Below, in pieces: positions 7,591 to 53,424 of a stretch of DNA of 64,000 bases. The first letter of the stretch is position 1. Each line of letters opens with the position of its first letter. The stretch comes from Patescibacteria group bacterium (lineage in GTDB: Bacteria > Patescibacteriota > Doudnabacteria > UBA920): contig DAIMCS010000001.1 of NCBI GenBank assembly GCA_036726225.1, positions 333,856 to 397,855 of the forward strand. Direction: 5' to 3'. Below the pieces are notes generated by a model that was given only the letters and a program-made list of their open reading frames with translations, ran no database searches and was not told the DNA's origin. The translations under genes and the position numbers were made by a program.

Positions 7591-9506
7591 GTCAACGAGA
7601 GTTTTATTTTTTCAGCAAGTTTTTTACCAACCACTAATGCGAGCTCTTCGGGCTTCGCATTTTTTATTTGCGCCACGGTTCCAAAATTTTTCTTAAGGAG
7701 TTTTTTGGTTTTGGGGCCAACGCCTGGTATTTCATCCAGTGCTGACTTTATGGCCTGTTTACTGCGTAACGATCTGTGAAAAGTTATGCCAAAACGGTGG
7801 GCTTCATCGCGCAAACGTTGCAATAGCTGCAGTGCGGGTTGATCGTGGGACAGGATTATAGGATCTGAATCGTGGGGAAGAAAAATTTCCTCAATTCTTT
7901 TTGCCAGGCCAATTATCCTTACAGTGCTAAGTGCTAAGTTATTAGTGCTAAGTACTTCCAAAGCTGTCGATAGCTGGCCTTTGCCGCCGTCGATTACAAT
8001 GAGATCAGGAAGCGGCCATTTATCAGATGTAGCGTGCCCATTCATGGGCGTCTCAGATCGCCGATAAATCGGCACGCTACGCATCAAACGCCGCGACAAC
8101 ATTTCTTTCATCATAAAAAAATCATCCGGAGTTTTTTTGCCCTGGATTTTAAATTTTCGGTATTCAGACTTAGCCGGCAAGCCGTCTACAAAGACCACCA
8201 TGCTTCCAACGGGGTTTGAGCCCTGAATGTTAGAAATGTCGTAGCATTCAATTCTTTTTGGAATTTTTTCTAAATTCAAAACCTCTTTTAGCTGTTCTAG
8301 CGCTTGGTTTATTTTAACCAAATGACCGGCGCGGGCAGAAAGCCAGTTTTTTAAGTGCTCTTCGGCATTGGTTTTGCCTAAAGTTATTAATTTAGCCGTT
8401 TTGCCCTTTTTAGGGGTTAGAATTTCAGTTTTGATGTGGAAGCGAGACTTAATTATTTCCTCTACCAAGGCGGCATTTAAGGCCGGCAATTGAGTATAAA
8501 TGCATTTAGGCGCGCTGGAAGTTTCTATATAGTACTGCTCTAGAAATCTTTGCAGTACACTTGATAGACCGAGGTCCGTCGAATTAATTTCGCGGACCGA
8601 GGAACCTTGGAAAGGGGAGTTTAGCTCATATACAAAATTTTCTTTGTCAAACATTTTACCTTCGCGGATTTTAAACAGGTTTATACAGGCAAAACCGTCA
8701 GAGCGGGCTTCGGAAATAAAATCCCAGTCCACCTTTTTCGGTAAAATTACGTTTTGTCTTTCCTGTAAAATTTCCAAAGACCGTAGCTGATCACGAAGTC
8801 TGGCTGCGGTTTCAAATTTCTTAGAGGCCGATGCTAAAGCCATCTCTGCCTTAATTTCTTTAACAACAGAAGTTATGTCTCCCTGCAGAAATTTAATAAT
8901 TTTATCTAATTGCAGCTGATATTCATCCGAAGTAATTTTACCAATGCAGACTCCCGGACAGCGGTGCATATAAAAGTAAAAACACGGACGGCTGGAAACT
9001 TTTTGCGCTGCGCAAAAAGGAAAAATTTTCCTGACTAAATTTAGAGTATTTTTAATTTTCCAGGCAGCGGAGTACGGCCCAAAGTATTTAATTTTAGACA
9101 TTGGATATTTGATATTGGATATTGTTTGGTTTTTGTTATTTGGTTCTTGAATCTTTCTGCTGTATCCAATCTGCGGAATTTGTGTGGAATAATCAATCGT
9201 AATAAACGCGTAATTTTTGTCGTCTTTTAAATCTATGTTGTATTTAGGAGTATATTGCTTGATAATTGTATTTTCCAAAAACGCACTTTCCAGTTCGTTG
9301 CTGACAACCGTGTAAGTAACATCAACGGCTTCGGCCATTAAAAATGGAATCTGCGGCCGTAGGTCATCGTGCCCAAAATACTGGCTGACCCGGGATTTTA
9401 AATTTTTAGCTTTGCCAACATATAAAACAGCGCCGTTTTTATCTAAAAATTGATAAACGCCGGGGGATTTTGGAATATTTTTTAGTTTTTCTAGCAGCGA
9501 TTGCAT
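7587..9506 (-). CDS. uvrC: excinuclease ABC subunit C (UvrC)
   Basis: N-terminal GIY-YIG domain (GVYQFLDKNGAVLYVGKAKNLKSRVSQYF). A C-terminal helix-hairpin-helix domain (ALDEIPGVGPKTKKLLKKNFG) supports the call. 639 aa. Confidence 0.9.
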   Translation of the reverse strand: MQSLLEKLKNIPKSPGVYQFLDKNGAVLYVGKAKNLKSRVSQYFGHDDLRPQIPFLMAEAVDVTYTVVSNELESAFLENTIIKQYTPKYNIDLKDDKNYAFITIDYSTQIPQIGYSRKIQEPNNKNQTISNIKYPMSKIKYFGPYSAAWKIKNTLNLVRKIFPFCAAQKVSSRPCFYFYMHRCPGVCIGKITSDEYQLQLDKIIKFLQGDITSVVKEIKAEMALASASKKFETAARLRDQLRSLEILQERQNVILPKKVDWDFISEARSDGFACINLFKIREGKMFDKENFVYELNSPFQGSSVREINSTDLGLSSVLQRFLEQYYIETSSAPKCIYTQLPALNAALVEEIIKSRFHIKTEILTPKKGKTAKLITLGKTNAEEHLKNWLSARAGHLVKINQALEQLKEVLNLEKIPKRIECYDISNIQGSNPVGSMVVFVDGLPAKSEYRKFKIQGKKTPDDFFMMKEMLSRRLMRSVPIYRRSETPMNGHATSDKWPLPDLIVIDGGKGQLSTALEVLSTNNLALSTVRIIGLAKRIEEIFLPHDSDPIILSHDQPALQLLQRLRDEAHRFGITFHRSLRSKQAIKSALDEIPGVGPKTKKLLKKNFGTVAQIKNAKPEELALVVGKKLAEKIKLSLT

Positions 9507-9547
9507 GGGTAAATTATAAACGCATTAGCCTGTCTCTGTCCATGTAG

Positions 9548-9579
9548 TTGACTAAAATCACCGAAGAGATTACTATAAT
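9548..9579 (+). promoter_or_regulatory. sigma70-like promoter (TTGACT, 17-nt spacer, TACTAT, overlapping TATAAT)
   Basis: TTGACT at 9548-9553, spacer aaaatcaccgaagagat, then tactataat. It is followed by a strong Shine-Dalgarno GGGGGA and ATG at 9605. Confidence 0.4.
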
Positions 9580-9604
9580 AAGTCCATATTCTAGGGGGAA
9601 GCAA

Positions 9605-10060
9605 ATGCGAGAAGAGCTAAAGCGATTTTTGGAGGAGCAAATCAGCATTCATCAGACGCTGCTCGAGGATGCTGCAAAAGAACAAAAGGTTCTCCTCCCG
9701 GGAGAAAAGTTGGAATTTGTTTTACGGGTGGCGAACGTGCCTTTTGTGGCTGCGAAGATCGAAGGAACAAAAAAGGGAAAGAGGCGTCCTTATGTTGATT
9801 TGGCTGATCAGAATTGGAGTGTAATATCCGCCATTAAGTGGGGAGGGAAGCGCAATCAAAAGATCGTAGATATTTTTCAATCGGCCCAGAATGAGTGGGT
9901 GCCGTACGAAGTTTTCGTTAAAGAATTTGGCGAACACTTCTATTATGAATCCAAATATCAAACAATCAACATGACTTTCCGTTACTCAGGTATGCCGTAT
10001 CGGGTCAAAAGAAGGGATGACAAGGAAGGGCGTTTTTATAAGGTTGTTAAAATCGTTTAG
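9605..10060 (+). CDS. hypothetical protein (the ORF track's TTG start at 9548 probably overlaps the promoter; ATG 9605 with a Shine-Dalgarno is preferred)
   Basis: Reads MREELKRFLEEQ... No recognisable motif. A GGGGGA ribosome-binding site lies 6 nt upstream. Confidence 0.45.
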   Translation: MREELKRFLEEQISIHQTLLEDAAKEQKVLLPGEKLEFVLRVANVPFVAAKIEGTKKGKRRPYVDLADQNWSVISAIKWGGKRNQKIVDIFQSAQNEWVPYEVFVKEFGEHFYYESKYQTINMTFRYSGMPYRVKRRDDKEGRFYKVVKIV

Positions 10061-10193
10061 TTCGGGCTTAAAGCAGGTATTTCGCAGGTCTGGTATAAGA
10101 AAAAATACCAGTCTTGCGGGACACCGGCTTTTTTGTTTCCCTAGCTTCTTGACGTTATCTTGACTTCCGTGATAGACTGACAACCAGTTTGTG

Positions 10194-10288
10194 CCTACAG
10201 AACTACAAAATGGGGACACTACAGATAACTACAGAATTTTTGATCCTTTTGTAGTCATCCGTAGTGCATCTAATCTGTAGTTTTGTAG
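10194..10288 (+). promoter_or_regulatory. palindromic array of 4 CTACA(G/A) units followed by 4 (C/T)TGTAG units immediately upstream of uvrA; candidate operator
   Basis: Forward units at 10194, 10203, 10219 and 10229; reverse units at 10249, 10259, 10275 and 10283. The spacings are mirror-symmetric (9,16,10 against 10,16,8). The array ends 4 nt before the uvrA ATG. Confidence 0.35.
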
Positions 10289-10291
10289 TTT

Positions 10292-13144
10292 ATGAAAGAT
10301 ATTATTTCCATCCGCGGAGCGCGGCAGCACAATTTAAAAAACGTAGATTTAGATTTGCCCAGAAACAAGTTGATTGTAATGACCGGCCTGTCCGGCTCGG
10401 GCAAGTCGTCTTTGGCGTTTGATACAATCTACGCCGAAGGCCAGCGCAGGTACGTTGAATCTTTATCGGCTTATGCCCGCCAGTTTATAGGCCTTATGGA
10501 TAAGCCCGATGTAGATAAAATTGAGGGCTTATCGCCGGCAATTTCCATAGACCAAAAATCAGCTTCGCACAACCCCCGTTCCACTGTGGGCACAGTTACG
10601 GAAATTTATGATTATATGAGGCTGCTTTGGGCAAGAATTGGCATTCCGCACTGTCCGGTTTGCGGCAAAAAAATTGCCGGGCAAACTATTGCCGCCATGG
10701 TAACGCAGCTTTTAACTTTAAAAGTCGGCACGAAAATAGTTTTGCTTGCCCCGTTTATTAAAGACCAAAAAGGCGAGCATCGCGTTATTTTTGAGCAAAT
10801 TAAAAAGGCGGGTTTTGCGCGCGTAAGGGTAGACGGCACGGTTATGGACTTAAACGAAGCGCAAAATTTAAATTTAGATAAACAGAAAAAACATTCTATA
10901 GACGTGGTGGTTGACCGTTTGGCAATTGACCAGGCGGAAAAGGGCAGGCTTTCGGAAAGCTTGGAAAAAGCCCTTGATCTTGGTGATGGCATAGCCATGG
11001 CGGTAAAAATGAACGCGGACAATAAAACGGATGAACACGGACCGGATATTATTCTGTCGCAAAAATTTGCCTGCCCGGACGGCCATGTGCAACTCTCTGA
11101 ACTCGACCCGCGTGATTTTTCTTTTAACAGCCCACACGGCGCCTGCCCTGAATGTAAAGGTTTGGGAACCAAGCTTACCGTGGAGCCGGATTTGGTAATT
11201 CCAAATCAGAGGCTGACTTTAGCCGAAGGCGCAGTTAGGCCCTGGAGCAAAACCACATCCAGACTTTCCTGGTACAGTCGCATTATGCAGGCCGTGGCCA
11301 AGGAATACAATTTTTCTGTAAATACACCGGTAAAAGATCTGCCCAAAAAATATATAGATGTAATTTTATACGGCACGGGCGACAAAAAAGTTAAAGTTTC
11401 CGGCGAATTCCGCGGTGGCGACGGCGAGTTTGAAATGAACACCACTTTTGAGGGCGTAATTCCTAATTTAGAACGCCGCTATGGTGAGACTGACAGCGAA
11501 TATATGCGCACTGAAATAGAAAACTATATGCGCGTTCGCCAATGCCCGGCCTGCAAGGGTCAGCGACTTAAGCCCGAAGTTTTGGGCGTGCAAATAGGCG
11601 GCAAGGGGATTGTGGAAGTATCGGGAATGAATATTGAATCGGCGTCTAAGTTTTATAAAGATTTAAATTTAAACCAAAAAGATACTCTCATAGCCAAACA
11701 GGTGTTAAAAGAAATTAACGCCCGCTTATCTTTTTTACTTAATGTCGGCTTGTCTTATTTATCGCTCGACCGCGCAGCTGACACTCTCTCGGGCGGGGAA
11801 GCCCAGCGCATCCGCCTTGCAACGCAAATCGGCTCCGGGCTTACCGGCGTGCTCTATATATTAGACGAGCCTTCCATTGGCCTACACCAGCGCGACAACA
11901 CCAGACTGCTTCAGACCCTTAAAGAGCTGCGCGATTTAGGCAACACGGTAATTGTAGTAGAGCACGACGAAGAAACCATTCGCGAGGCGGATTGGGTGGT
12001 GGATATTGGTCCGGGTGCGGGCAAGCACGGCGGAGAATTGGTAGCCGAAGGCACGCCACAACAAATTCAAAAAAATTCTAAAAGCCAAACCGGACAGTAT
12101 TTGGCCGGCAAGGAGTTTATAGAAATTCCAAAACGCAGGCGCCCGGGCAACGGACGCAAGCTTTCTATTTTTGGCGCCGAGGAATTTAACCTTAAAGAAA
12201 TTGACGTAGACATTCCGCTTGGAAAATTTGTTTGCGTAACCGGAGTTTCGGGCAGCGGAAAATCAACGCTCTTCCACGACATTTTGGCCCGGGCGCTCTA
12301 TAAATATTTTTACAACAGCAAGGAAGAGCCGGGCAAGCACAAGAAAATTTTAGGCATTGACCATATAGACAAAATTATTAACATAGACCAGTCGCCCATT
12401 GGCCGTACCCCGCGTTCTAACCCCGCCACTTATACAGGCCTTTTTACACCTATCCGTGATTTGTTTGCCGAAACCAAGGAAGCCAAAATGCGGGGATATC
12501 AGGCCGGCCGGTTTAGCTTTAACGTTAAAGGCGGCAGATGTGAAAAGTGCGCGGGCGACGGGGTTATTAAAGTGGAAATGAATTTTTTGCCTGACGTTTA
12601 CATTACCTGCGAGGAATGTCACGGCAAACGCTACAACCAACAGGCTTTGGAAATTCACTTTAAAGACAAAACCATTTCCGACGTGTTGGAAATGACTGTA
12701 GATGAAGCTAAAATCTTTTTTGCTTCCCTGCCTGCCATCCACAAAAAGTTAGAAACACTTTCTCAAGTGGGTTTGGGTTATATGCGTTTAGGACAAAACG
12801 CCACCACTCTTTCCGGCGGAGAAGCGCAAAGAATTAAATTGGCTACGGAACTTTCTCGCGCATCAACCGGCCGTACGCTTTATTTATTGGACGAGCCGAC
12901 AACCGGACTTCATTTTGCCGACACCAAACGTTTAATTAGTGTTCTTAACAAACTGGTAGACAAAGGAAACACCGTCGTGGTTATTGAACATAACTTGGAT
13001 ATGATAAAAACCGCTGACTGGATAATTGACCTGGGCCCGGAAGGCGGGGATAAGGGCGGTACCTTGGTTGCCCAAGGCACGCCGGAAGACATTGTTAAAG
13101 TAAAAAGTTCCTACACGGGACAATATCTGAAGAAAGTATTATAG
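10292..13144 (+). CDS. uvrA: excinuclease ABC subunit A (UvrA)
   Basis: 950 aa with two ABC ATPase modules ([22 protein letters not shown], two LSGGEAQR signatures). Zinc-finger CxxC pairs are present. Confidence 0.95.
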
Positions 13145-13858: not shown

Positions 13859-15580
13859 ATGAAAAAAATAATGAAAAAAGCCGGCCTGTGGGCCGGTACA
13901 GTAGGCGTGGTCATAGCCGGAGCGGCTACTTTTTCCGCCTTTGAAGCTCACATAATAAACGTGACTGCCAGAATTGAAAATGCACTTGCGGTACAAACCG
14001 GTGCAATTGATTTTGGCACCGTATTCCCGCAGGAATTTTTGGAAGCGGCACTTCCGGTGACCATGTCCGAATCTTTCTTAGGCGAGGATAGGGTAGATGA
14101 CATTGAATATGTCATTAAACAAAAACCCAAGGTCAAGCTATTTGACGGCGAGGTAGCAGACCCTAACGAAAATCCAACACCCGGCGACCCGTACGCCACA
14201 ATTTTCCCAACCACGCATCCAGAGGGCATAGTGGCCTGGCGATATTGTGAAGAAAATTTGCCGCTAAATGCTCCTTATTCGGTAACCGAAGCCAACATGG
14301 GTGACGAATACTGGCGTTACTGCTATTTGCCGCTTGCCAACTATTTGTCCAAGCATGAAACTACTGCTGACGGAAGTGTAACTGAAAATGACATTTCCGT
14401 GGACGCTTTCCACCAGTCGTATATGTGGAATGCCAGCACCAGCCAAAGCTCGCTGGATCCGGCCTTTATTGCCCGGGGAAGGCTGGCTAAGAGTGAGCAG
14501 GACACAGAAGATGCATGGACCATTGACTTAATGGTGCCCTGCTTTATAAACCACTGCGCCCAGGAAGCTGACGATCCAAATAATCTTCCCGAAGATCAGA
14601 TTCCGGGGTTCTTTGTGCCCGGACCGTTCCGATTGCCCACCTCCACTGAGCATTCAGTCTTTGGGACTGACTTGTGGATTGAAGTTAGCGGCATTAGCTT
14701 GCCGCCAACAGATGTACCAGGCACTTTAACCGTTACTAAAGTGTTGGTTAATGACAACGACGGTACAGCCACCACTACTGACTTTAGCTTTGCAGTCAAT
14801 GGTGGAGCTTCCGCGCCGTTTGAGGCGGACGGCACTAATGTAATTGCATTGCCGGCCGGCAACTACGACGTAGTCGAGGATGCCGCAGCAGGCTATACTA
14901 CCACTTATGCCAACAGCTTGAACGCAAGCCTGGATTGTCAGGACTTGGTTGTTCCAAGCGGCGGCAATGTGACATGTACAATTACCAACGATGACACTGC
15001 TCCTCCCGCGCCGGAAGTTGGAGAATTAACAGTCATTAAGGTAGTAGTTAATGACAATGGCGGCACAGCTGTTACCGGTGATTTTTCCTTGTTTGTTGAT
15101 GCCGCAGCTGTGGTCTCCGGTGTTTCCACCACCACTGCTGTAGGCAGCCACACCGTGAGTGAAGCCGGATTGTTTGGGTACTCTGCTACTTTTAGCGGTG
15201 ACTGCAATGCTTCTGGTATAGTAGAAGTGTCATCAAGTACTCCCGCTACCTGTACCATTACCAATGACGACATTGCGCCAACCATTACAGTTACAAAGAA
15301 CGTAGTGGGCGGAACTGCTTCGCCTGATGACTTCGACCCGTCAGTTGACGGGGCGGTTGTAACTTCGGGCTCTTCAACTGTCGTGAGCGCAAATGTTGCT
15401 CACGCAATTGATGAAGAGGCAAGTGTAGCAGGTTACACTTTTACCTCAATAACCGGTGTTTCATTTTTAGGAGTGGCATGTCCCCTTGTGCTTGATGGGA
15501 CTATAACTCTTACCCCGGGTGATGTAGTAACTTGTACTATCACTAACACCAGCGTTCCGACAGTTGCTACAACTAACTAA
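13859..15580 (+). CDS. secreted TasA/camelysin-like protein with a putative SipW-cognate signal peptide and three C-terminal repeats of an Ig-like (Cna-B/prealbumin-like) domain
   Basis: The N-terminus reads MKKIMKKAGLWAGTVGVVIAGAATFSAFEAHIINVTARIENALAVQTGAIDFG. The AF....A.GTxD segment resembles the mature N-termini of TasA/camelysin. Three repeats end in VTCTITNDD, ATCTITNDD and VTCTITNTS. The strong ribosome-binding site is agagaggg. Confidence 0.5.
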   Translation: MKKIMKKAGLWAGTVGVVIAGAATFSAFEAHIINVTARIENALAVQTGAIDFGTVFPQEFLEAALPVTMSESFLGEDRVDDIEYVIKQKPKVKLFDGEVADPNENPTPGDPYATIFPTTHPEGIVAWRYCEENLPLNAPYSVTEANMGDEYWRYCYLPLANYLSKHETTADGSVTENDISVDAFHQSYMWNASTSQSSLDPAFIARGRLAKSEQDTEDAWTIDLMVPCFINHCAQEADDPNNLPEDQIPGFFVPGPFRLPTSTEHSVFGTDLWIEVSGISLPPTDVPGTLTVTKVLVNDNDGTATTTDFSFAVNGGASAPFEADGTNVIALPAGNYDVVEDAAAGYTTTYANSLNASLDCQDLVVPSGGNVTCTITNDDTAPPAPEVGELTVIKVVVNDNGGTAVTGDFSLFVDAAAVVSGVSTTTAVGSHTVSEAGLFGYSATFSGDCNASGIVEVSSSTPATCTITNDDIAPTITVTKNVVGGTASPDDFDPSVDGAVVTSGSSTVVSANVAHAIDEEASVAGYTFTSITGVSFLGVACPLVLDGTITLTPGDVVTCTITNTSVPTVATTN

Positions 15581-15634
15581 AACTATTCCATACCTTTCCC
15601 CGTGGAGGGCGGGGAAGGGTATGGGTAGGGTATA

Positions 15635-16159
15635 TTGAGGAACAAAATAAATTTTAAAATACAATTTATGGACGAACAAATAAGGCCCGCCCAGAATCCA
15701 AACGTGAGTGTAAAAAATGAATTAATAAGCAGCACTCCGGTAAAAAAAAGAAGCAAATTAAAGCTGGTGCTGTGGGCAATATTGGCCCTGGTAATTATTT
15801 TGCTTTTAGTGCAATACACAAATGCTGCCAAGTACGAAGCTTTAGTGCAGGTAATTGATGAGGACAGAATTGGCGTTAATCCAACTTCCCAAAGGCTGGA
15901 TTTTGGAGATTTGCCCAAAGACAAAGACGCTATCCGCACTGTAAGTTTGCAAAATCAAAGCAGCTACAAAATGCCCAGCTACGTAATTGTCTGGGAGCGC
16001 GGCGAAATTTCTGACTTAATGCGCGTGAGTAAAAATTTCTTCACTTTGGATCCCGGCCAAACCCAAAGGCTGGATTTTACGGTTCACGTTCCTAGCTCTG
16101 CTGAATTTAAATATTACAAAGGTAGTGTGGTTATTTTTCAAATTCCAAAAATCTGGTAG
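15635..16159 (+). CDS. single-pass membrane protein with a beta-rich extracytoplasmic domain (DUF1573/Ig-like pattern); possible anchoring or assembly partner of the fibre proteins
   Basis: Transmembrane helix LKLVLWAILALVIILLLV, followed by RLDFGDLPKDKDAIRTVSLQNQS...FTLDPGQTQRLDFTVHVP. Confidence 0.4.
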   Translation: MRNKINFKIQFMDEQIRPAQNPNVSVKNELISSTPVKKRSKLKLVLWAILALVIILLLVQYTNAAKYEALVQVIDEDRIGVNPTSQRLDFGDLPKDKDAIRTVSLQNQSSYKMPSYVIVWERGEISDLMRVSKNFFTLDPGQTQRLDFTVHVPSSAEFKYYKGSVVIFQIPKIW

Positions 16160-16183
16160 TTTTGGACTTACGCACAAAATAAA

Positions 16184-16660
16184 ATGGATAAATTTTATGT
16201 TAACGCCATGAAAAAATATTTTATTAGCGCAACAAAAGTTTTAGTGTACCTCGCCTTTGTGGGTCTTGCTATGTACTTTACCCCCAAAGTACTTTCTCGT
16301 AGCCTAAATACGCTCTATCCTTTAGCTACCATTACTTCCGGCTCTATGTGGCCGCAGCTAAAGGTTAATGACTTAATTTTAATGAAAGGCGCAACCGGGG
16401 ACGAAGTAGAGGCAGGGCAGATTATAATTTTTAAGAACCAGCGGGGTTTTACCATTCACCGGCTTCTTCGAAAAGAAAACGGCAAACTTATAACCAAAGG
16501 CGATGCCAACAATGTGGAAGACGTGCCCGTATTGCCGCAAGATGTAATAGGCCGCGCTGTCTATGTTGGCAAAAAGCCGTTTCGGATCCCTTACTTAGGT
16601 TTAATTGCAAGAAATTTACCCCAAATTCGTGCTTTGCAAAAATTGAGCGGTAATAATTAA
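16184..16660 (+). CDS. sipW: signal peptidase I, SipW-type (S26B, archaeal/ER-like)
   Basis: Catalytic Ser box TSGSMWPQLKVNDLILMKG, His box TIHRL and the ITKGDANNVED box (compare SipW ITKGDNN). It has a single N-terminal transmembrane helix. It is distinct from the bacterial-type LepB at 52804. Confidence 0.7.
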   Translation: MDKFYVNAMKKYFISATKVLVYLAFVGLAMYFTPKVLSRSLNTLYPLATITSGSMWPQLKVNDLILMKGATGDEVEAGQIIIFKNQRGFTIHRLLRKENGKLITKGDANNVEDVPVLPQDVIGRAVYVGKKPFRIPYLGLIARNLPQIRALQKLSGNN

Positions 16661-17716
16661 TTGGAAGTTTGTATGGAGAACAAGCTCTCAAAAAGAATTT
16701 CTGTTAATCCGGCTTTAAGGCTTGGCAATGCCAGGCAGTCTTTTGCTGTGCCGGGGGAAAAGCTCCGAGGGAAGTTTAAGTTTGCCTCTCCTAAAGTTTC
16801 CAGTATTACAATGAGCTTTGAGGCAAATCAGCAGCCCAAAAGAAATTTTTTTAGTAAGCAATATTTAAGGATTTTTAATTTAGGCATTGCTTCTTTAATT
16901 GGTATTTTGTTTTCTATTTCCGCCCTGCACGCGTTTGAGGCGCACGTGATTAACGTGACGGCTAAAATAATGCCCAGGCCGTGTTTGATTTTTAATGTGT
17001 ATTCACAAGGCTATTGGAAGAATCACACCGACGAATGGCTTTTGCCCCAAAATTTGGGGCCTTTGGAAATTAATACTGTAGAAGAAGGCTTGGAAATTTT
17101 TGATACCAAAAAAACTCATTTAGATAAGTTGCGCGTTCAGCTGCTGGCGTTAAAGCTTAGCTTAGCTTCGGAGGAAGGCGCGGGCCAGGCCTTAGTGCCC
17201 GGATTGGTAATAACATTACAGCAGTTAGCCGACCAGGTAGATGCCTTACTTTCACAAGACCCGCTTCCTTCAGATACAGTTTTGGAAGATTTAAAAGATC
17301 TCGTAGAAAGTGTGAATGTGGCGCATACAGTATCTACCTGTGAAGGGCATGAGCCCGGTTCTGGCGGGGATGACGATGATGACGATGAAGGTAACGGCAA
17401 TGGGAATGGGAATAACAACAACGACAATGGTCAAAACAATGAAAATAATTCTTCACAGCCTGCTTTAGAGGTAGTGGAGGGAGAAGTTTTGAGCGAAGTC
17501 CAAGGCACAAGCACTACTACGAGTGACACGGCTGCTACATCTACACAAACAACAACTAATTCTGAACAGAAAGAAAAGTCTAACGAGAAATCAGAAGAAA
17601 ATTCTTCCAACTCCCAAACTACTTCATCCGCGCCTGCACAGACGTCTTCTTTAGTACCCAAAGAGCCAAAATCATCAGACACAGAATCACAGGCAGCAGA
17701 AGGCGAAGGCCAATAG
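16661..17716 (+). CDS. secreted protein sharing the AFEAHVINVTAKI N-terminal motif with the 13859 gene; acidic Asp/Asn/Gly/Ser-rich low-complexity C-terminal tail
   Basis: Reads ...GILFSISALHAFEAHVINVTAKIM..., then GGDDDDDDEGNGNGNGNNNNDNGQNNENNSSQP...TSSAPAQTSS. Confidence 0.6.
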   Translation: MEVCMENKLSKRISVNPALRLGNARQSFAVPGEKLRGKFKFASPKVSSITMSFEANQQPKRNFFSKQYLRIFNLGIASLIGILFSISALHAFEAHVINVTAKIMPRPCLIFNVYSQGYWKNHTDEWLLPQNLGPLEINTVEEGLEIFDTKKTHLDKLRVQLLALKLSLASEEGAGQALVPGLVITLQQLADQVDALLSQDPLPSDTVLEDLKDLVESVNVAHTVSTCEGHEPGSGGDDDDDDEGNGNGNGNNNNDNGQNNENNSSQPALEVVEGEVLSEVQGTSTTTSDTAATSTQTTTNSEQKEKSNEKSEENSSNSQTTSSAPAQTSSLVPKEPKSSDTESQAAEGEGQ

Positions 17717-18080: not shown

Positions 18081-19724
18081 ATGAAAAAGTTTTTTTATCT
18101 TCTGGGCACAAGCTTGTTATTTTTTGCTTTGCCCCTTTTAGCTTTTGCAGAAGAGCCGGTAGCCCAAATTAAAATAATTTCAAAACCCCAAAGCATTGCT
18201 ACATCCACGCCTTCTTCTGTTTTTACCGTTGAAGCTCAGGACGCTTTGGGCAACAAGGTGGATGTGGCAACCACCACGCGCGTAAATCTCAGCGCAGATT
18301 CGGCAACCGGCCAGTTTTTAACAGCTTCGGCGAGCGTATGCAATACCGCAACGACTAGTAGTGTAACAATTGCCAACGGCAGTTCGCACAAAAGTTTTTG
18401 TTATATAGACGAAAGTCCGGGAAGTTTTACACTGACCCTTTCTGTAATTGACCAGCCTTCTGTGCTGGGTGATTCGCAAATAATTGTAATTTTAGGAGAA
18501 GAACCTGCGCCTACCCCTACGCCTACGCCGAGTCCCGAACCTGTACCGACTACCACGCCAAAAAGTTTATTGGTAAAAATTTACAGGTTTTTGCCTAATC
18601 CGCCCGGGGAAGATTCGGGCAACGAGTGGGTGGAAATTAAAAATTCCGACGAAAATCCGGTATCTTTGGACGGTTGGTTTTTGGATGACGAAGGTATGGA
18701 GCCGGGTAGTAGCGCTTTTGTTTTATCAGGCGAAATATTGCCGGGCGAGATTAAACGGATTATTTTACCCGTCGGCAGCTTTGCACTTAACAATAGCAGC
18801 GGGGATGAAGTGAATTTATATTTTAATGACAAATCAATTGCCCATAAGGTCGTATATGAGGCCACGGCTTACGATGACGGCATATTTGAATTAATTGACG
18901 GGGTTTGGCAGCCGCCCCCACAGCCTTCACCCGGAGGCGGTGGGGGCGGCGGAAGCAGTCAAACCCCGTCTGGCGGGGGCCCTAAAAGCCAATCATCGAC
19001 AGCAACCACTACAGCCGTGGCCTTGAATATTATAATTAGCGAAATTTATCCAAGACCTTTGGAAGGCGGAGAGGAATTTTTAGAGTTGTATAATGTTGCC
19101 ACGAGCACGGCCAACTTGCAGGGGGCCGTATTGCAAATTGGTAACAGGAAAAAAGTTTTTGAAAAAGGCGCAAAAATTGAGCCGGAAAAATATTTTGTAA
19201 TTTATGAAGACGACTTGCCCGTGCGTTTGTCCAACAACGGCCAAACAATTAAATTTTACGACTCTTCCGGCAAACTGCTGGCTCAAATTTTATATCCCAA
19301 AGCAGAGGAAGGCCACGCTTATGGAAGCGATGACGGCAAAACTTATGCCTGGACTAGCACCGTAACTGCCGGCGACAGCAATTTTTATGTACTGTCTGAA
19401 GCCGTGGAAGAAAAAGAATCAGCTAAAGATGAAAAACCTAAAACCACCGCATCCAAATCTACATCATCCGGCATTACTTCATCCCAAGCCAAAGCAATTT
19501 TGAAAACAAATGAGGATCTAAAATTACAAATTTCTGTATTACAGGAATCTATAAACCAGTTAGCGCTAAAATTAGATAATCTTCAAACTCAAAAAACGCC
19601 GGCACAGGCTATCGGACCGCCAGCTCCCACCTCTTTAAAAAAGGGGAGAATTTTAGTGTGGCCAACAGCTATTATAGTTTTAAGCGGTATAGTTTATACG
19701 ATTTTTAGAAAGCCAAAAGATTAA
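18081..19724 (+). CDS. secreted, C-terminally anchored protein with two lamin-tail domains (LTD) and a coiled-coil stalk
   Basis: Signal peptide MKKFFYLLGTSLLFFALPLLAFA. LTD motifs IYRFLPNPPGEDSGNEWVEIKNSDENPVSLDGWFLDDEG and IISEIYPRPLEGGEEFLELYNVATSTANLQGAVLQ. Coiled coil LKLQISVLQESINQLALKLDNLQ. C-terminal transmembrane helix. Confidence 0.7.
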   Translation: MKKFFYLLGTSLLFFALPLLAFAEEPVAQIKIISKPQSIATSTPSSVFTVEAQDALGNKVDVATTTRVNLSADSATGQFLTASASVCNTATTSSVTIANGSSHKSFCYIDESPGSFTLTLSVIDQPSVLGDSQIIVILGEEPAPTPTPTPSPEPVPTTTPKSLLVKIYRFLPNPPGEDSGNEWVEIKNSDENPVSLDGWFLDDEGMEPGSSAFVLSGEILPGEIKRIILPVGSFALNNSSGDEVNLYFNDKSIAHKVVYEATAYDDGIFELIDGVWQPPPQPSPGGGGGGGSSQTPSGGGPKSQSSTATTTAVALNIIISEIYPRPLEGGEEFLELYNVATSTANLQGAVLQIGNRKKVFEKGAKIEPEKYFVIYEDDLPVRLSNNGQTIKFYDSSGKLLAQILYPKAEEGHAYGSDDGKTYAWTSTVTAGDSNFYVLSEAVEEKESAKDEKPKTTASKSTSSGITSSQAKAILKTNEDLKLQISVLQESINQLALKLDNLQTQKTPAQAIGPPAPTSLKKGRILVWPTAIIVLSGIVYTIFRKPKD

Positions 19725-19804: not shown

Positions 19805-20557
19805 ATGAGTGAAAATGACAACATCACCCCCCGCCAGGCAAAAATTTTAGCCGCAATTGTTAAGGAAAATTGTGACAGCGGCCAGCCTGTTGCCAGTGCC
19901 GATTTGGTAGAGAAGTACGACTTTAACGTCTCTTCTCCCACCATCCGCAACGAAATGCAGGTCTTGGAAAAAAACGGCTACATAAAACAGCCTCATACTT
20001 CGGCGGGACGCGTTCCTACGGACAAAGGCTTTAGGTATTTTGTTAATCAGTTAATGGACAGGGTAAAGCTGACTTTAAAAGAACAAGACCATTTAAAAAC
20101 AGAATTAATGAAGATGCAGTTAGCCCACGCTGAAATGGGCAGGCGACTGGCTAAGTTAGTCAGTGAGCATTCCCAGCAGGCATCATTTGTTTTGCTTCCC
20201 GAAGAAGTTTCCAGCGTTGGTCTTTCCAATATTTTAAACAATCCGGCTCTCCTGCCTGAAGACGCAAAAGAAATTGCTGAATTTTTTGACCATTTAGACG
20301 AGCACGCCGAAGAAATGATAAAAGATTACACCGGCAAAGGACCGGAAGCAAAAATTGGCAAAGAAATTACGCTTTCAAAAAATTCAGATTACTCTATGAT
20401 AGTTTCCGGACTAAAGCTTCCCAGCGGTAAAAAAGGAGTAATTGGTTTAGTCGGCCCAAAGAGTATGAAGTACGAAAAGAACTTGAGCCTTATGGAATAT
20501 ATAGCCAAGCTTTTGGGCGGAGGAACAGCAGTAATAATTTTTATGATAATTAAGTAA
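19805..20557 (+). CDS. hrcA: heat-inducible transcription repressor HrcA
   Basis: The N-terminal winged helix reads RQAKILAAIVKENCDSGQPVASADLVEKYDFNVSSPTIRNEMQVLEKNGYIKQPHTSAGRVPTDKGFRYFVNQLM. It is 250 aa and is followed by grpE. Confidence 0.85.
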   Translation: MSENDNITPRQAKILAAIVKENCDSGQPVASADLVEKYDFNVSSPTIRNEMQVLEKNGYIKQPHTSAGRVPTDKGFRYFVNQLMDRVKLTLKEQDHLKTELMKMQLAHAEMGRRLAKLVSEHSQQASFVLLPEEVSSVGLSNILNNPALLPEDAKEIAEFFDHLDEHAEEMIKDYTGKGPEAKIGKEITLSKNSDYSMIVSGLKLPSGKKGVIGLVGPKSMKYEKNLSLMEYIAKLLGGGTAVIIFMIIK

Positions 20558-20642
20558 ACCATTTCGACCGAAGGGAGAAATCTGTTAATTATTAGTGTTT
20601 ATACAGATCTCTCACTCCGCTCGAGATGGAAAATAAAGGGTT

Positions 20643-21176
20643 ATGGAAGAAGACAATCAGCAAAGCAATGCAACATCATCGGAAGTTTCTTTAGACCAAC
20701 TCCAACAGGATTTTGAAAACGCGATGAATAACTGGAAGAGGACCGCGGCAGATTTTGAAAACTACAAAAAGCGCAAAGAAGCGGAAAACAAAGAATTAGT
20801 CGAGTTTGCCAGGGAAGTAACAGTTGCTAAGCTTTTGCCAACATTGGATAGCTTGGGGCAAGCGTTAAAGCACATTCCTCAGAATACAGTAAACAGTACA
20901 CAGCAAACAGAATTTGAGAAACAATTTCAGAATTGGCAAATGGGCATTAATGGAATTTTACTACAATTAGATAAAACTTTAGGGGAACTGGGAGTAAAAA
21001 AGATTGAAGCAGTTGGGAAAAAGTTTGACCCGCATTTCCATGAAGCTATTAGGGAAGCGGAGAGCGAGCAGGATGACGGAATTATTATCGAAGAACTGCA
21101 AAGCGGGTTTGAACTAAACGGGAAAGTTATAAGGCCAAGTCAGGTGATTATCTCCAAAAAGAAAACCGGCGGTTAG
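20643..21176 (+). CDS. grpE: nucleotide exchange factor GrpE
   Basis: GrpE motifs KRKEAENKELVEFAREVTVAKLLPTLDSLGQAL and KKFDPHFHEAIREAES are present. Confidence 0.9.
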   Translation: MEEDNQQSNATSSEVSLDQLQQDFENAMNNWKRTAADFENYKKRKEAENKELVEFAREVTVAKLLPTLDSLGQALKHIPQNTVNSTQQTEFEKQFQNWQMGINGILLQLDKTLGELGVKKIEAVGKKFDPHFHEAIREAESEQDDGIIIEELQSGFELNGKVIRPSQVIISKKKTGG

Positions 21177-21210
21177 ATTACCGCCGGGTATTAACCTCCG
21201 GTCGTGGAAT

Positions 21211-21300
21211 TTAGTCACGCAGGAATGCCCCGCCTCCTTCGTATAGCAGCCAGCATACGAAGATAATTAACACAAGAAACCCTATCCTTCTCAAGAGCAT
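21211..21300 (-). CDS. possible 29-aa hydrophobic peptide (not in the ORF track, which only lists 60 aa and longer)
   Basis: Reverse strand reads AAGGGAGGTGAT ATG CTC TTG AGA AGG ATA GGG TTT CTT GTG ... GAC TAA, giving MLLRRIGFLVLIIFVCWLLYEGGGAFLRD. It has a strong Shine-Dalgarno at the right spacing. It overlaps the palindrome cttcgtatAGCAGCCAGCatacgaag. Confidence 0.3.
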   Translation of the reverse strand: MLLRRIGFLVLIIFVCWLLYEGGGAFLRD

Positions 21301-21367
21301 ATCACCTCCCTTTTTGGCTTATTTTAGCCCATAATCAATATATTTACAAGCAGAAGACAATAAAAGG

Positions 21368-21829
21368 TTGAAAATTTCATTAAGTCGCTTAATCAGTCGG
21401 CCATTAGCAAACGAAAGCAAGAGTAGCATGCAAACCCAGGATTTTATAAACTACCTAAAATCTTTAAAATCCACAGACTGGGAATTGAAGGCCACAGAGG
21501 AATGGACAGTAAAAGATATGGTTGCTCATTTGGTTGGTTGGGAAAAAGCCAATGCAGAAGCGGCGAGCGCGGCGCTTGAGACGAATAAAGACCCTGTCTG
21601 GCTGGAAGTAGAGGACGAAGACAGCTTTAACGCAGAATCTGTAAAATTTTATAAAGCATACTCAAGCCGGCAGCTTTTAGAGGAATGGGAAAATTGGCAG
21701 GTTAAGCTTAACGAAATTACGGAAAAAATAAGCCAAAAAAATTATCAAATACTCTTTAACTGGCTGGCAGAATCTAAAAATCATAAAGAACATCATTTTC
21801 AACAAATTAAAAAGCTAATAATTAGGTAG
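21368..21829 (+). CDS. DfsB/ClbS-like (DUF1706) protein; the start may be an internal Met near 21421
   Basis: Reads WELKATEEWTVKDMVAHLVGWEKANAEAA... This resembles the DUF1706 N-terminal pattern (W.vKD.laHl..W...). Confidence 0.35.
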   Translation: MKISLSRLISRPLANESKSSMQTQDFINYLKSLKSTDWELKATEEWTVKDMVAHLVGWEKANAEAASAALETNKDPVWLEVEDEDSFNAESVKFYKAYSSRQLLEEWENWQVKLNEITEKISQKNYQILFNWLAESKNHKEHHFQQIKKLIIR

Positions 21830-21855
21830 TAATCTGTAAAAAGGAAGGCAACTAT

Positions 21856-22149
21856 ATGACAATAAAAGAAATGTTTGAAGTGCGGGAGATAATGGAAATG
21901 GACGACAAGTCCAAAAAGATAAAGGTTTTAAGTGACGATGACTGCCAAATTGTCAGCAAAGCGTTAAACAAGAATAAAATTATTTTGAATTTAAAGCGTA
22001 CGTCGGACGGCAGTGAAGGCAATGTGTTTGTGTACCTTAAAGATGAGTTTAAAAGCGAGTTCCCAACTTCCAAAAAACTTTTTGCCAGCAGAAAAGTAAT
22101 TGGGCTAACTTTAAGAGAATTTAAGGAGTTTGATATAGAGGGGCTTTAG
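21856..22149 (+). CDS. hypothetical protein
   Basis: 97-aa ORF in a very AT-rich stretch between grpE and dnaK. It has a ribosome-binding site aaaggaagg. Confidence 0.4.
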   Translation: MTIKEMFEVREIMEMDDKSKKIKVLSDDDCQIVSKALNKNKIILNLKRTSDGSEGNVFVYLKDEFKSEFPTSKKLFASRKVIGLTLREFKEFDIEGL

Positions 22150-22176
22150 TGAAGAAAAGATAAGAATTTATTTAAG

Positions 22177-22533
22177 ATGTTTAATCAAATTTCTTTTATT
22201 GTTTCAGTTACATTGTTACTCTGGTCAGCTATTTTTGGCTTAGTTTTGTTATTTTTTATTATCTTTGTTGTTAAACCAGATAAAGCTCGATCGAAAGATA
22301 GCGTAGTTATAGCCCCACGAGAAAGTTTTATAGAAAAAAATAGTAGATTACAAGAAGACCCTGATACTGAATCATTGAGAATTGGAAGTACAGTTGCAGT
22401 CCCAAGCATACAAGGGACCTTTTCACCCATTGTTGGTGGGTATAAATTAAATCAACAAATTTCTCAAAGTGAATTTAATAAGAGTAATTTAGTAATTCGT
22501 CCATATAACAAGGACAATCACAAGAAAGGATAA
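22177..22533 (+). CDS. hypothetical membrane-anchored protein
   Basis: N-terminal transmembrane helix [26 protein letters not shown]. 118 aa. Confidence 0.4.
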
Positions 22534-22537
22534 CTAT

Positions 22538-24412
22538 ATGCCAAAAATTATAGGAATAGACTTAGGAACATCTAACAGTGCCGCATCCGTAATGGAAGCG
22601 GGCAAGCCGGTAATTATTCCGGCGGCAGAAGGTGCATCGCTCGGGGGTAAAGCTTTCCCGTCTTACGTAGCCTTTACCAAAGAAGGCCAGCTTTTGGTTG
22701 GGGAACCGGCAAGGCGCCAGGCTGTAACTAACCCCGAAGGCACCATTTACGAAGCCAAAAGAAAAATGGGAACTAAAGAGAAATTTACTGTGGCCGGAAA
22801 AGAATATACTCCGGAACAAATTTCCGCGTTTATCCTCCAAAAAATTAAAAAAGATTCAGAAACCTTTTTAGGCGGCCCGGTTACTAAAGCGGTAATTACA
22901 GTACCGGCTTATTTTGACGACAGTCAAAGACAGGCAACCAAGAACGCCGGCGAAATTGCAGGCCTTGAAGTTGTTCGCGTAATTAACGAGCCAACGGCCG
23001 CGGCTTTTGCTTATGGTTTGGATAAAACGGGCAAAGACCAAAAGATTTTAGTTTTTGACCTTGGTGGCGGTACTTTGGATGTTACCATAATGGATTTTGG
23101 CGAACACGAAGGCCAGGCAACTTTTGAAGTGCTTTCCACCTCGGGCGACACAGCCTTGGGCGGTAAGGATATGGACAAGGCTTTGATAGATTATTTAACC
23201 ACATCTTTTAAGAGCGAAAGCGGCGTGGATGTTTCGGGCGACAAAATGGCTATGAACCGCGTTAGGGAAGCTGCGGAAAAAGCTAAAATTGAACTTTCCA
23301 CCACTTTGGAAACTGACCTTAACCTTCCGTTCATTACAGCCGATGCCAACGGCCCAAAGCATTTCCAAATAAAAATTACCCGGGCCAAGCTTGAGGAATT
23401 AATAAAACCGATAGTAGACAGAATGAAGCACCCGCTACAGCAGGCTTTAACTGACGCTAAGCTCACCCCGGCTAACATTGATAAGATTATTCTAGTCGGC
23501 GGACCAACCCGTATGCCTGCGGTTAAAGGATTTGTAGAGCAGTATGTGGGCAAGCAGGTAGAAGGCGGCATTGACCCAATGGAAGCCGTGGCCAAAGGCG
23601 CGGCCATCCAGGCCGGAATTTTGGGCGGCGACGTGCAGGGCAAAGAAATTTTGCTGCTCGACGTTACGCCGCTTACTTTGGGACTTGAAACTTTGGGCGG
23701 CGTTCGCACACCGCTTATTGACCGTAATACCACCATTCCGACATCTAAATCCCAAACATTTTCTACTGCGGCTGACAACCAGACATCGGTAGAAATTCAC
23801 GTTATGCAGGGTGAGCGCGAGTTTGCCACAGACAACAAGTCTTTGGGCAGGTTTATTTTAGACGGCATCCCGCCGGCGCCAAGAGGCATTCCCCAGGTTG
23901 AGGTTACTTTTGACATTGACGCTAATGGTATACTTACAGTTAAGGCAAAAGACAAAGCCACTAACAAAGAGAGCAAAATTACCATTCAGGGTTCTTCCAA
24001 CTTAAACAAAGATGAAATTGAAAGGATGAAAAAAGAAGCTGAAGCGCATGCAGAAGAGGATCGTAAGCGGAAAGAAACCGTGGACGTGCGAAACCAGGCC
24101 GATACTTTAATAAGCGTTAGTGAAAAAACCTTAAAAGACGGCGGCGACAAAGTGAAGGCAGAAGACAAGACAGAAGTTGAAGCTAAAATTAAAGCTTTAA
24201 AAGACATTAAGGACAAAGACGACGTAACTGCCATAAAGAAAGCTGTAGATGAGCTTTCTGCGGCAATCCAAAAGGTGGGCGCGGCTATGTACCAGGCTAG
24301 CGGATCAGCGGATCAGCAGTCAGCGAATCAGCCGGGTGAGAATTCAGGCGGACCAAAGCCGGAGGAAAAAGGACCTGTGGATGCAGAATTTAAAGAAGTC
24401 CCCAAACAATAA
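22538..24412 (+). CDS. dnaK: molecular chaperone DnaK (Hsp70)
   Basis: [37 protein letters not shown] and the C-terminal lid with a KK-rich tail. 624 aa. Confidence 0.95.
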
Positions 24413-31450: not shown

Positions 31451-31528
31451 TATGGTGGGATGGGAGGGGATCGAACCCTCGACAAACGGCTTAAAAGGCC
31501 GCTGCTCTACCAACTGAGCTACCATCCC
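31451..31528 (-). tRNA. tRNA-Lys (anticodon UUU), CCA encoded; apparently 2 nt longer than canonical between the D and anticodon arms
   Basis: Reverse complement reads GGGATGGTAGCTCAGTTGGTAGAGCAGCGCGGCCTTTTAAGCCGTTTGTCGAGGGTTCGATCCCCTCCCATCCCACCA. The acceptor, D and T arms are canonical and the anticodon loop is CTTTTAA. Confidence 0.7.
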
Positions 31529-52525: not shown

Positions 52526-52602
52526 GGGCATTTAGCTCAGCTGGTTAGAGCGTTGCATTCACATTGCAAAGGTCGCAGGTTCGATTCCTGCAATGCCCAC
52601 CA
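52526..52602 (+). tRNA. tRNA-Val (anticodon CAC), CCA encoded
   Basis: GGGCATTTAGCTCAGCTGGTTAGAGCGTTGCATTCACATTGCAAAGGTCGCAGGTTCGATTCCTGCAATGCCCACCA is a canonical cloverleaf. Confidence 0.85.
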
Positions 52603-52803: not shown

Positions 52804-53424
52804 ATGGAGAATGAAGACAAAAATTTACAAGCAACAGTTGCCCCAAACTCCCAAAGCCAAAGCGTGGGAGCATTTGTCTGGGACTTGGTTAAAATTTTAG
52901 TAATTGCCATTGCAATCATTTGGCCGTTTAGAACTTTTGTGGCTGAACCCTTTGTAGTTTCCGGGTCTTCTATGCTGCCAAATTTCCATAATCACGATTA
53001 CTTAATAATAGACCGCCTCTCTTACAGGTTAGGGGAGCCTTCAAGAGGCGATGTAGTGGTCTTGAGGTTTCCAAAAGACGAAACCCAATATTTTATAAAA
53101 AGAATTATTGGACTGCCAAACGAAAAAGTATGTTTCTCGCCCACCTGCGACGGCCAAGACGGGCACGTGTATATTTTTAACCAGCAGCACCCCGAAGGCC
53201 TAAAGCTTTCAGAGTCCTATTTAACCGAACTGACCTATCCTTACGCAGACGTTTCGGGCAGAATTTTAGCAGACAACGAATTTTATGTGTTGGGTGACAA
53301 CAGGGACGCAAGCTCTGACTCCCGCACCTGGGGCATTTTGCCTAAAAGCGATATTGTCGGCAAAGTTTGGAGCAGGGTGTATCCATTTTCAAAAGCAGAA
53401 TTTTTTAAAACCCCAACGTATTAA
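52804..53424 (+). CDS. lepB: signal peptidase I (bacterial type, S26A)
   Basis: SGSSMLPNF Ser box, KRIIGLPNEKV, and the VLGDNRDASSDSRTWG box. It has an N-terminal transmembrane helix. Confidence 0.85.
   Translation: MENEDKNLQATVAPNSQSQSVGAFVWDLVKILVIAIAIIWPFRTFVAEPFVVSGSSMLPNFHNHDYLIIDRLSYRLGEPSRGDVVVLRFPKDETQYFIKRIIGLPNEKVCFSPTCDGQDGHVYIFNQQHPEGLKLSESYLTELTYPYADVSGRILADNEFYVLGDNRDASSDSRTWGILPKSDIVGKVWSRVYPFSKAEFFKTPTY

Follow-up and report, generated by a model that had tools for sequence, protein, structure and literature searches.

A candidate surface-adhesin operon of Patescibacteria, with an archaeal-type signal peptidase encoded among tagged secreted proteins

Why should a bacterium of the candidate phyla radiation (CPR, or Patescibacteria) encode a signal peptidase of the archaeal and endoplasmic reticulum (ER) type between two secreted proteins that begin alike? 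The question is raised by four genes, designated P1, MEM, PEP and P4, that lie in a 64-kb stretch of a Doudnabacteria genome (assembly GCA_036726225.1, contig DAIMCS010000001.1, positions 333,856 to 397,855), hereafter the window. CPR bacteria are ultrasmall and mostly uncultured, and apparently grow attached to host cells; the machinery of surface attachment is central to their biology, and to our knowledge almost none of it has been annotated. We propose that P1-MEM-PEP-P4 is an operon for the specialized export and assembly of surface adhesins, typical of Parcubacteria-type CPR bacteria, and assign to this account as a whole a probability of about 0.55. That PEP and the tagged proteins form a dedicated peptidase–substrate pair in these organisms is, taken by itself, highly probable.

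A four-gene unit and its relatives

The four open reading frames (ORFs) all lie on the + strand and are separated by gaps of 12–87 nt. The features of the unit are as follows.

13859–15580, +: P1, 573 residues, a tagged protein of the "N" class, with a Sec-type signal (residues 1–26), the tag, an immunoglobulin (Ig)-like N-domain of about 250 residues and three SpaA_2 repeats
13937–13975, +: tag copy 1, AFEAHIINVTARI, residues 27–39 of P1; the probable cleavage site is immediately N-terminal
13976–14713, +: N-domain of P1, an ASH/PapD-like β-sandwich with a variable, Cys-containing insertion, beginning IENAL..IDFGTVFPQE
14711–15577, +: three SpaA_2 prealbumin-like repeats of P1 (PF19403, 8e-19, 3 stretches), coinciding with DNA repeat D2
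15668–16159, +: MEM, a type II single-pass membrane protein of 163 residues; the ORF is open from 15635
16184–16660, +: PEP, an S26B (Sec11/SipW-type) signal peptidase of 158 residues with one N-terminal transmembrane (TM) helix
16673–17716, +: P4, a tagged protein of the "O" class, with a long N-terminal region, a TM segment or signal, the tag, a Cys..GYWKNH body and an acidic, Asn-rich tail
16931–16969, +: tag copy 2, AFEAHVINVTAKI, of P4
17980–18013, +: terminator-like hairpin of 15 pairs followed by a T run, marking the end of the four-gene unit on the basis of a consensus scan only

An initial annotation of this DNA had correctly placed four ORFs on the + strand, whereas its starts for MEM (15635) and P4 (16661) are probably wrong. 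MEM most likely starts at M12 (nucleotide 15668), a conserved start that is the same in public gene calls. For P4 the most likely start is the ATG at 16673, which has GGAAG 5 nt upstream and is used by public gene calls; an ATG at 16811 is an alternative, and the TTG at 16661, where the ORF opens, is less likely.

PEP scores 76.2 bits against the profile for archaeal-type signal peptidase I (TIGR02228, cutoff 51.85), and among proteins of known structure its best matches are human SEC11C and SEC11A (6e-9). In 66 homologues there is no variation at S54 of the SGSMWP box, H92 of IHR, D107 or D113, which are the Ser/His/Asp set of a Sec11-type enzyme, in which a catalytic His replaces the bacterial Lys. 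The S26B assignment first made for the ORF at 16184 is thus borne out. A hydrophobic stretch at about residues 13–33, ahead of the catalytic boxes, is the putative membrane anchor, and the predicted topology would leave the catalytic domain outside. Archaea and the eukaryotic ER rely on S26B enzymes as their general signal peptidases. The window also encodes a signal peptidase I of the LepB (S26A) type, at 52804–53424 (+; TIGR02227, 130.6 bits, cutoff 47), so that the genome carries both the bacterial and the archaeal/ER type, and PEP is an additional, specialized peptidase.

The surroundings of the tag in other genomes were surveyed with a degenerate DNA pattern for A(F/Y)EAH(V/I)xNVTA. At least 119 blocks contain the tag, and nearly all derive from metagenome-assembled genomes (MAGs) of Patescibacteria; fewer than one chance match is expected, as estimated from the information content of the pattern. 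The block labels include Parcubacteria/Paceibacterota, Doudnabacteria, Ryanbacteria, Wildermuthbacteria, Azambacteria, Giovannonibacteria and others. The 121 blocks analyzed, each of at most 8 kb except one (L001), contain between one and five tagged ORFs each, 217 in all. Homologues of PEP occur in 72 of them, homologues of MEM in 70 and both in 63, and MEM directly precedes PEP in 62 of these 63. PEP lies a median of 17 bp from the nearest tagged gene and shares its strand in 72 of 72 blocks. Gene order is stereotyped as N(1–4)-M-P-O, where N stands for a tagged protein with the N-domain and O for one whose body is different; the commonest arrangements are NNMPO (13 blocks), NMP (12), MPO (11), NMPO (10) and NNMP (9), and the window is an example of NMPO. 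The supposition in the initial annotation that a dedicated peptidase accompanies its cognate substrates is strongly supported by this co-orientation, by the fixed order and by the presence of a separate LepB.

What the tag is attached to varies. In upstream tagged genes the N-domain is followed by SpaA, VWA or LTD, or stands without a further domain, and the gene just downstream of PEP carries the tag on an unrelated body, such as a GYWKNH domain, LTD, CBM96, an Fn3-associated domain or SdrD-B. Among all O bodies and N-domain fusions, LTD, CHB_HEX_C/Fn3_assoc, SdrD_B, VWA, SpaA variants, CBM96/DNRLRE, malectin, DUF11 and dockerin were recognized, and these passengers are modules of the adhesin type. 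Clustering of all ORFs in about 120 related loci revealed no further conserved family, and no sortase, usher, ATPase or glycosyltransferase; the remaining clusters that recur consist of ORFs read antisense to the conserved genes, as shadows of them.

Three observations concern the margins of the survey. The sole match labeled with a named lineage outside Patescibacteria (L018, DATKUR010000016.1, labeled Candidatus Humimicrobiaceae; GC 39%) encodes a normal tagged N-domain protein that appears by eye to continue into a VWA-like region; neither PEP nor MEM lies in the block, and the contig has probably been mis-binned. Among the binchicken MAGs, several labels of "Gammaproteobacteria" or "Saccharibacteria" likewise look generic. 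In L001 (GCA_030697645.1), an N-domain-like SdrD_B protein at 15049–15864 has a degenerate tag, TQVLRVRAAVDVLLVSDTAIPFGTVFPGE, without AFEAH, and some members of the operon may have lost the cleavage motif.

The window itself places the operon between uvrC/uvrA and the hrcA-grpE-dnaK-dnaJ heat-shock cluster (about 7600–13144 and 19805–24000, respectively), the identities of the flanking genes being those called for the identical JGI contig Ga0137465_1000001 (496 kb). Just downstream of the operon, at 18081–19724 (+), is a gene for a protein of 547 residues that combines two lamin-tail (LTD) domains with a TM anchor at its C-terminus; elsewhere, LTD is the passenger most often found on tagged proteins. 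The window also contains two tRNA genes, at 31456–31528 (−) and 52526–52599 (+).

The tag, the cleavage site and the domain models

The tag copies AFEAHIINVTARI of P1 and AFEAHVINVTAKI of P4 are identical at 11 of 13 residues and follow immediately on the hydrophobic segment, so that the near-identical motif that first drew attention to the two secreted proteins is real; BLASTP aligns P1 and P4 with 14/28 identities (E 3e-5), and the consensus of the pair is AFEAH(I/V)INVTA(R/K)I. No further copy exists in the window. A DNA-level repeat or a recombination site was considered and rejected: the nucleotide sequences of the two copies agree at only 77% of positions and differ mostly by synonymous changes, and it is therefore the peptide that is conserved.

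Beyond the tag the two proteins differ. The three VTCTITN repeats noted earlier at the end of P1 correspond to the SpaA_2 stretches, which are prealbumin/Ig-like and constitute the only Pfam match of the protein; its C-terminus, ...TNTSVPTVATTN, has neither an LPXTG motif nor a TM segment. P4 has no match in Pfam, NCBIfam or the Protein Data Bank (PDB), and the Asp/Asn/Gly low-complexity character ascribed to its acidic tail is evident in the ORF translation. Its position directly after the peptidase is that of the O genes in related loci. Its relatives form a small family that has only the tag in common with other tagged proteins, followed by a Cys..G(Y/F)WK(N/T)H body.

Residues 1–285 of P1 retrieve at least 381 proteins, and every named one is from Patescibacteria. 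Their N-domain either stands alone (about 250–300 residues) or is fused to SpaA_2, VWA or LTD. In 44 aligned members A-F-E-A-H-(V/I)-(I/V)-N-V-T-A-x-I-E-N-A-L is invariant or nearly so, and A27, E29, H31, N34, V35, T36, A37 and I39 do not vary at all; all of the 120 top homologues have the tag, exactly or with one residue changed. An AlphaFold2 (AF2) model of P1 residues 1–285 (pLDDT 85.7, pTM 0.77) displays the N-domain as a single sandwich with an insertion, confident throughout except for the tag, which is modeled as coil with pLDDT below 50. The N-domain and MEM have in common an ASH/PapD-like fold whose structural matches include the chaperones of chaperone–usher systems, and a profile of the N-domain family finds no match among PDB sequences. 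The tagged N-domain is an ASH/PapD-like β-sandwich that defines an unannotated family of Patescibacteria.

Residues around the tag indicate where the precursors may be cut. An uncharged stretch of 19–21 residues precedes the tag, and at the positions that lie outside the search pattern there is P at −4, L/M at −3, F/L/M at −2 and A/S at −1 (90% small). The full signature is signal-P-(L/M)-(F/L/M)-(A/S)-AFEAH(V/I)(I/V)NVTAxI. With the arrow marking the cut, (L/M)-(F/L/M)-(A/S)↓A-F-E-A-H mirrors the T-W-A↓A-F-N-D of TasA: in protease subsite notation, an aromatic residue at P2, a small one at P1, Ala at P1′ and Phe at P2′. The mature N-terminus of TasA is A28 (A27↓A28-F29), as confirmed against 8AUR. 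The initial annotation had likened the AFEAH segment to the mature N-terminus of TasA, and in this limited respect, an x-aromatic-small↓A-F layout, the likeness holds; nor does the motif fall within a retained membrane anchor, a situation that annotation had considered, since it lies outside the uncharged segment of about 20 residues. LepB is reported to cleave poorly when the P2′ residue is aromatic (PMC10269814), which would provide a rationale for a dedicated enzyme.

The invariant Asn-Val-Thr of the tag (13955–13963 and 16949–16957) is an N-glycosylation sequon (N-x-S/T), and the Glu and His two and four residues past the putative cut are invariant as well. These residues may indicate glycosylation, or an assembly that depends on metal or pH.

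MEM consists of an N-in TM helix, a juxtamembrane strand, AAKYEALVQVI (family consensus A-x-K-Y-x-A-x-V-x-V), and an ASH/MSP/PapD-like sandwich of about 110 residues. In the model, built from a 16-sequence alignment, the juxtamembrane strand packs into the sandwich of its own chain. Of the earlier description of this gene, at 15635, as a single-pass membrane protein with a DUF1573-like β domain, the membrane protein and the β-sandwich survive and the DUF1573 label does not: in Pfam, MEM has only sub-threshold PapD-like/ASH matches. Among 1.84 billion cluster representatives, 864 belong to the MEM family at E ≤ 1e-3. A counterpart of Spc3 (SPC22/23), the accessory subunit of the ER signal peptidase complex, was entertained for MEM and dropped because SPC22/23 is not among its matches.

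Two further details of MEM may be recorded. An exact 17-nt direct repeat, CCCAAAGGCTGGATTTT, occurs inside the gene (15888–15904 and 16062–16078), placing QRLDF in two different strands of the sandwich. An AT- and Lys-rich subgroup of MEM-like proteins (E about 1e-10 to 1e-14) is encoded on a 6-kb contig (L125, Logan SRR22387808, 250–5703) that may be archaeal; its neighbors are two paralogous TM proteins of 210–215 residues, rich in N-x-S/T sequons, and a 684-residue surface protein, and no peptidase is present within the 6 kb. The 210–215-residue proteins, which have GYVNLTVNTNLAVD after the TM segment, were compared with the N-domain family and rejected as relatives (hhalign probability 1.5%).

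A proposed assembly pathway and its rivals

How might these parts work together? We suggest that the precursors cross the membrane through Sec and that PEP, probably in complex with MEM, cuts them at (A/S)↓AFEAH, a site that enzymes of the LepB type would handle poorly on account of the aromatic P2′ residue. The freed, amphipathic N-terminal strand (AFEAHVINVTAKI in P4) would then insert into the Ig-like N-domain of a neighboring subunit by donor-strand complementation, and the product would be a linear fibre displaying SpaA, VWA or LTD modules. Since the O protein has the donor strand and lacks the acceptor domain, it would be found at one end of the fibre, as a tip adhesin or cap. MEM would serve as a membrane-tethered chaperone or as a basal anchor, and its own strand, KYEALVQVI, resembles the tag. 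We rate the assembly of a fibre by donor strands at just under an even chance.

Several points weigh against this account. Cleavage, polymerization and strand insertion are all deduced from genes and monomer models. The low pLDDT of the tag may reflect only a flexible linker beside the signal helix, and the cut may fall one residue later (A↓FEAH). Alignment by hhalign of the TM segment, tag and IENAL..IDFG of the N-domain family with the TM segment and KYEALV..LDFG of MEM gives a probability of 29%, which is not significant. P4 may carry a cytoplasmic N-terminal region of about 75 residues, which would be unusual ahead of a cleaved signal. The rate of linkage between tag and peptidase is inexact, because 47 of 48 PEP-negative blocks end too near the tagged genes to be judged. 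Finally, in the table of tags compiled from 206 sequences, positions 0–5 and 7–10 are fixed by the search pattern; conservation of the tag is nevertheless independent of that pattern, as it is seen in the 44-member alignment, in the P4 family and in the 120 top homologues.

The alternative that survives best is sorting without a polymer. The tag would be a determinant of recognition and cleavage, perhaps presented by MEM, and the mature proteins would be released or displayed as monomeric adhesins. All of the evidence for a dedicated peptidase and its substrates fits this explanation equally well, the passengers are ordinary adhesin modules, and it does without the polymer, for which monomer models and gene content are the grounds. 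On the other hand, the 13 near-invariant residues past the cut extend far beyond what S26 enzymes normally read; the tag is carried most often by a conserved Ig-like domain, of which an operon encodes one to four paralogues, a pattern like that of pilins; the fold of MEM is that of pilus chaperones; and the tag is not packed in cis in the model of P1. We consider sorting alone unlikely, though it must be taken seriously.

It is also conceivable that the operon is a very distant branch of the Pam pili described for Candidatus Mycosynbacter amalyticus (Saccharimonadia) rather than an independent system. Pam pili assemble by donor-strand exchange with membrane-anchored PapD/FimC-like chaperones and without a trans-envelope machine (Troman et al., June 2026 preprint, bioRxiv 10.64898/2026.03.03.709456). 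Both systems are restricted to the CPR and combine Ig-like subunits with membrane-anchored PapD-like proteins in one operon that has no usher or ATPase, and the Pam authors hold that sequence searches underestimate the spread of their system (bioRxiv 10.64898/2026.03.03.709456). The architectures differ, however. Pam pilins have a nine-strand N-terminal domain (NTD), a donor strand in the inter-domain linker and a truncated-Ig C-terminal domain (CTD), and the two-domain Pam chaperones carry a TM helix at the C-terminus (bioRxiv 10.64898/2026.03.03.709456); in the tagged operon the conserved strand is N-terminal, the N-domain is one sandwich, and MEM is a one-domain protein with its TM helix at the N-terminus. 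Nor does the Pam paper mention a peptidase, cleavage or Parcubacteria (bioRxiv 10.64898/2026.03.03.709456). Common descent with Pam is on balance improbable.

The initial annotation had read the locus as TasA/camelysin-like, that is, as a homologue of tapA-sipW-tasA in a CPR organism. An S26B peptidase flanked by two substrates with only an N-terminal strand in common does recall TapA and TasA, the x-aromatic-A↓A-F layout is similar, and hhalign of the 44-member family profile against a validated TasA sequence aligns the signal and first strand. That alignment, however, has a probability of only 14% and leaves the body unaligned. Neither P1 nor P4 matches PF12389 (Peptidase_M73/TasA) at E ≤ 1. 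The SipW-cognate signal, TIGR04088, is absent at E ≤ 10 from N-terminal pieces of 66–73 residues, at E ≤ 1 from the full-length window proteins, and at E ≤ 0.01 from the portions of 68 tagged proteins that begin with the tag and exclude the signal core. TasA (5OF1, 8AUR) was not found when PDB sequences were searched with the family profile. In the comparison of structures, Foldseek returned no PDB match for the P1 1–285 model at E ≤ 0.001, with TM-scores of 0.19–0.22 for the TasA fibre; the jelly-roll fold of TasA was not found in the tagged domain. PEP reaches 39.8 bits against the SipW equivalog NF046067, below the cutoff of 190, and MEM has no counterpart in the Bacillus operon. On the terms that the annotation itself had set, homology with TasA is refuted, and we give a true TasA/camelysin locus only a slim chance. 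A "TasA outside Firmicutes" would in any case not be new, since PF12389 homologues have already been reported in Patescibacteria.

That PEP is simply the general signal peptidase of the organism and lies beside secreted proteins by coincidence, as the general role of S26B enzymes in archaea and the ER might suggest, can be dismissed as exceedingly improbable, being contradicted by the LepB-type enzyme in the same window, by the strand agreement and synteny at 72 of 72 loci, whose gene order is fixed in many lineages of the CPR, and by the adjoining LTD protein at 18081, which uses an ordinary LLAFA↓EEP signal without a tag.

The preferred account, export by a dedicated peptidase followed by assembly of surface adhesins, would explain why CPR bacteria that carry the operon possess an archaeal/ER-type signal peptidase beside the normal one. 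No existing Pfam or NCBIfam model detects the tag, and a search of the literature found no description of the operon, of the tag or GYWKNH strings, or of Patescibacteria in connection with SipW, Sec11 or signal peptidase; only the Pam preprint was related. Together, the tag, MEM and the S26B peptidase provide a compact and easily recognized marker for a set of surface adhesins in many Parcubacteria-type genomes. AFEAHIINVTAR or AFEAHVINVTAK would be a diagnostic tryptic peptide, with which metaproteomics could probe both the cleavage site and expression. If donor strands are indeed used, the operon would represent a second class of CPR pilus beside Pam and a natural plug-in connector for surface display. 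We tentatively extend the proposal, at somewhat less than even odds, to an independent class that is widespread in Parcubacteria-type lineages: a Sec11-type peptidase would license donor-strand polymerization, AFEAHVINVTAxI would be a universal connector for any passenger (VWA, LTD, CBM, SpaA or GYWKNH), a one-domain PapD-like protein would be chaperone or anchor, and the peptidase may have been acquired from archaea with the fibre genes.

Comparison with known export and assembly systems

Cognate sorting systems such as sortase/LPXTG, exosortase/PEP-CTERM and TIGR04088 resemble the tagged operon in that a short, conserved signal is found on unrelated surface proteins and is genetically linked to a processing enzyme. 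Here, in contrast, the tag is N-terminal, following the signal-peptide core, and the substrates are apparently confined to the operon rather than dispersed. Sortase-dependent pili of Gram-positive bacteria differ further: P1 lacks an LPXTG motif, and the 120 related loci contain no conserved family of the sortase type.

Among donor-strand systems, the chaperone–usher pili (Pap/Fim) are set apart by their usher and outer membrane, both absent here; MEM is a one-domain, membrane-anchored protein, and a dedicated signal peptidase is included in the operon. The archaeal donor-strand fibres (the cannulae CanA/CanX, DUF1102 tubes and ABP pili) have no sequence similarity to the tagged proteins and match them no better than generic ASH/MSP domains do, and their peptidase is the general one.

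In tapA-sipW-tasA of Bacillus subtilis, too, an extra archaeal/ER-type signal peptidase is encoded between its own substrates, whose mature N-terminal segment is conserved and starts with A-F, P1 being a small residue. In Bacillus this segment serves as the fibre's donor strand, and TapA has only that strand in common with TasA; TasA fibres assemble by N-terminal donor-strand exchange, with TapA donating its N-terminus (PMC9674648, PMC10151520). The CPR substrates, however, have no similarity of sequence or fold to TasA or TapA, their tag is different, far more invariant and portable onto many passengers, and their operon includes an additional, obligatory membrane-anchored Ig-like protein and a peptidase that fails the SipW equivalog.

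With Pam pili the tagged operon has in common its restriction to the CPR, Ig-like subunits, membrane-anchored PapD/FimC-like proteins, tip and anchor subunits (putative here) distinct from the major ones, and independence of usher, ATPase and sortase. Donor-strand exchange is demonstrated for Pam and proposed here. What distinguishes the tagged operon is the invariant N-terminal tag, the S26B peptidase and a one-domain, N-terminally anchored MEM. Its distribution differs as well, since it occurs in MAGs named as Parcubacteria/Paceibacterota, Doudnabacteria, Ryanbacteria, Wildermuthbacteria and others, whereas Pam is reported from Saccharimonadia and Microgenomatia (bioRxiv 10.64898/2026.03.03.709456). 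The distinction from Pam (PDB 25PZ, 25QA) is drawn from the published description rather than from comparison of sequences or structures. Taken together, the operon follows both a SipW/TasA-like and a Pam-like logic, and builds it from different parts.

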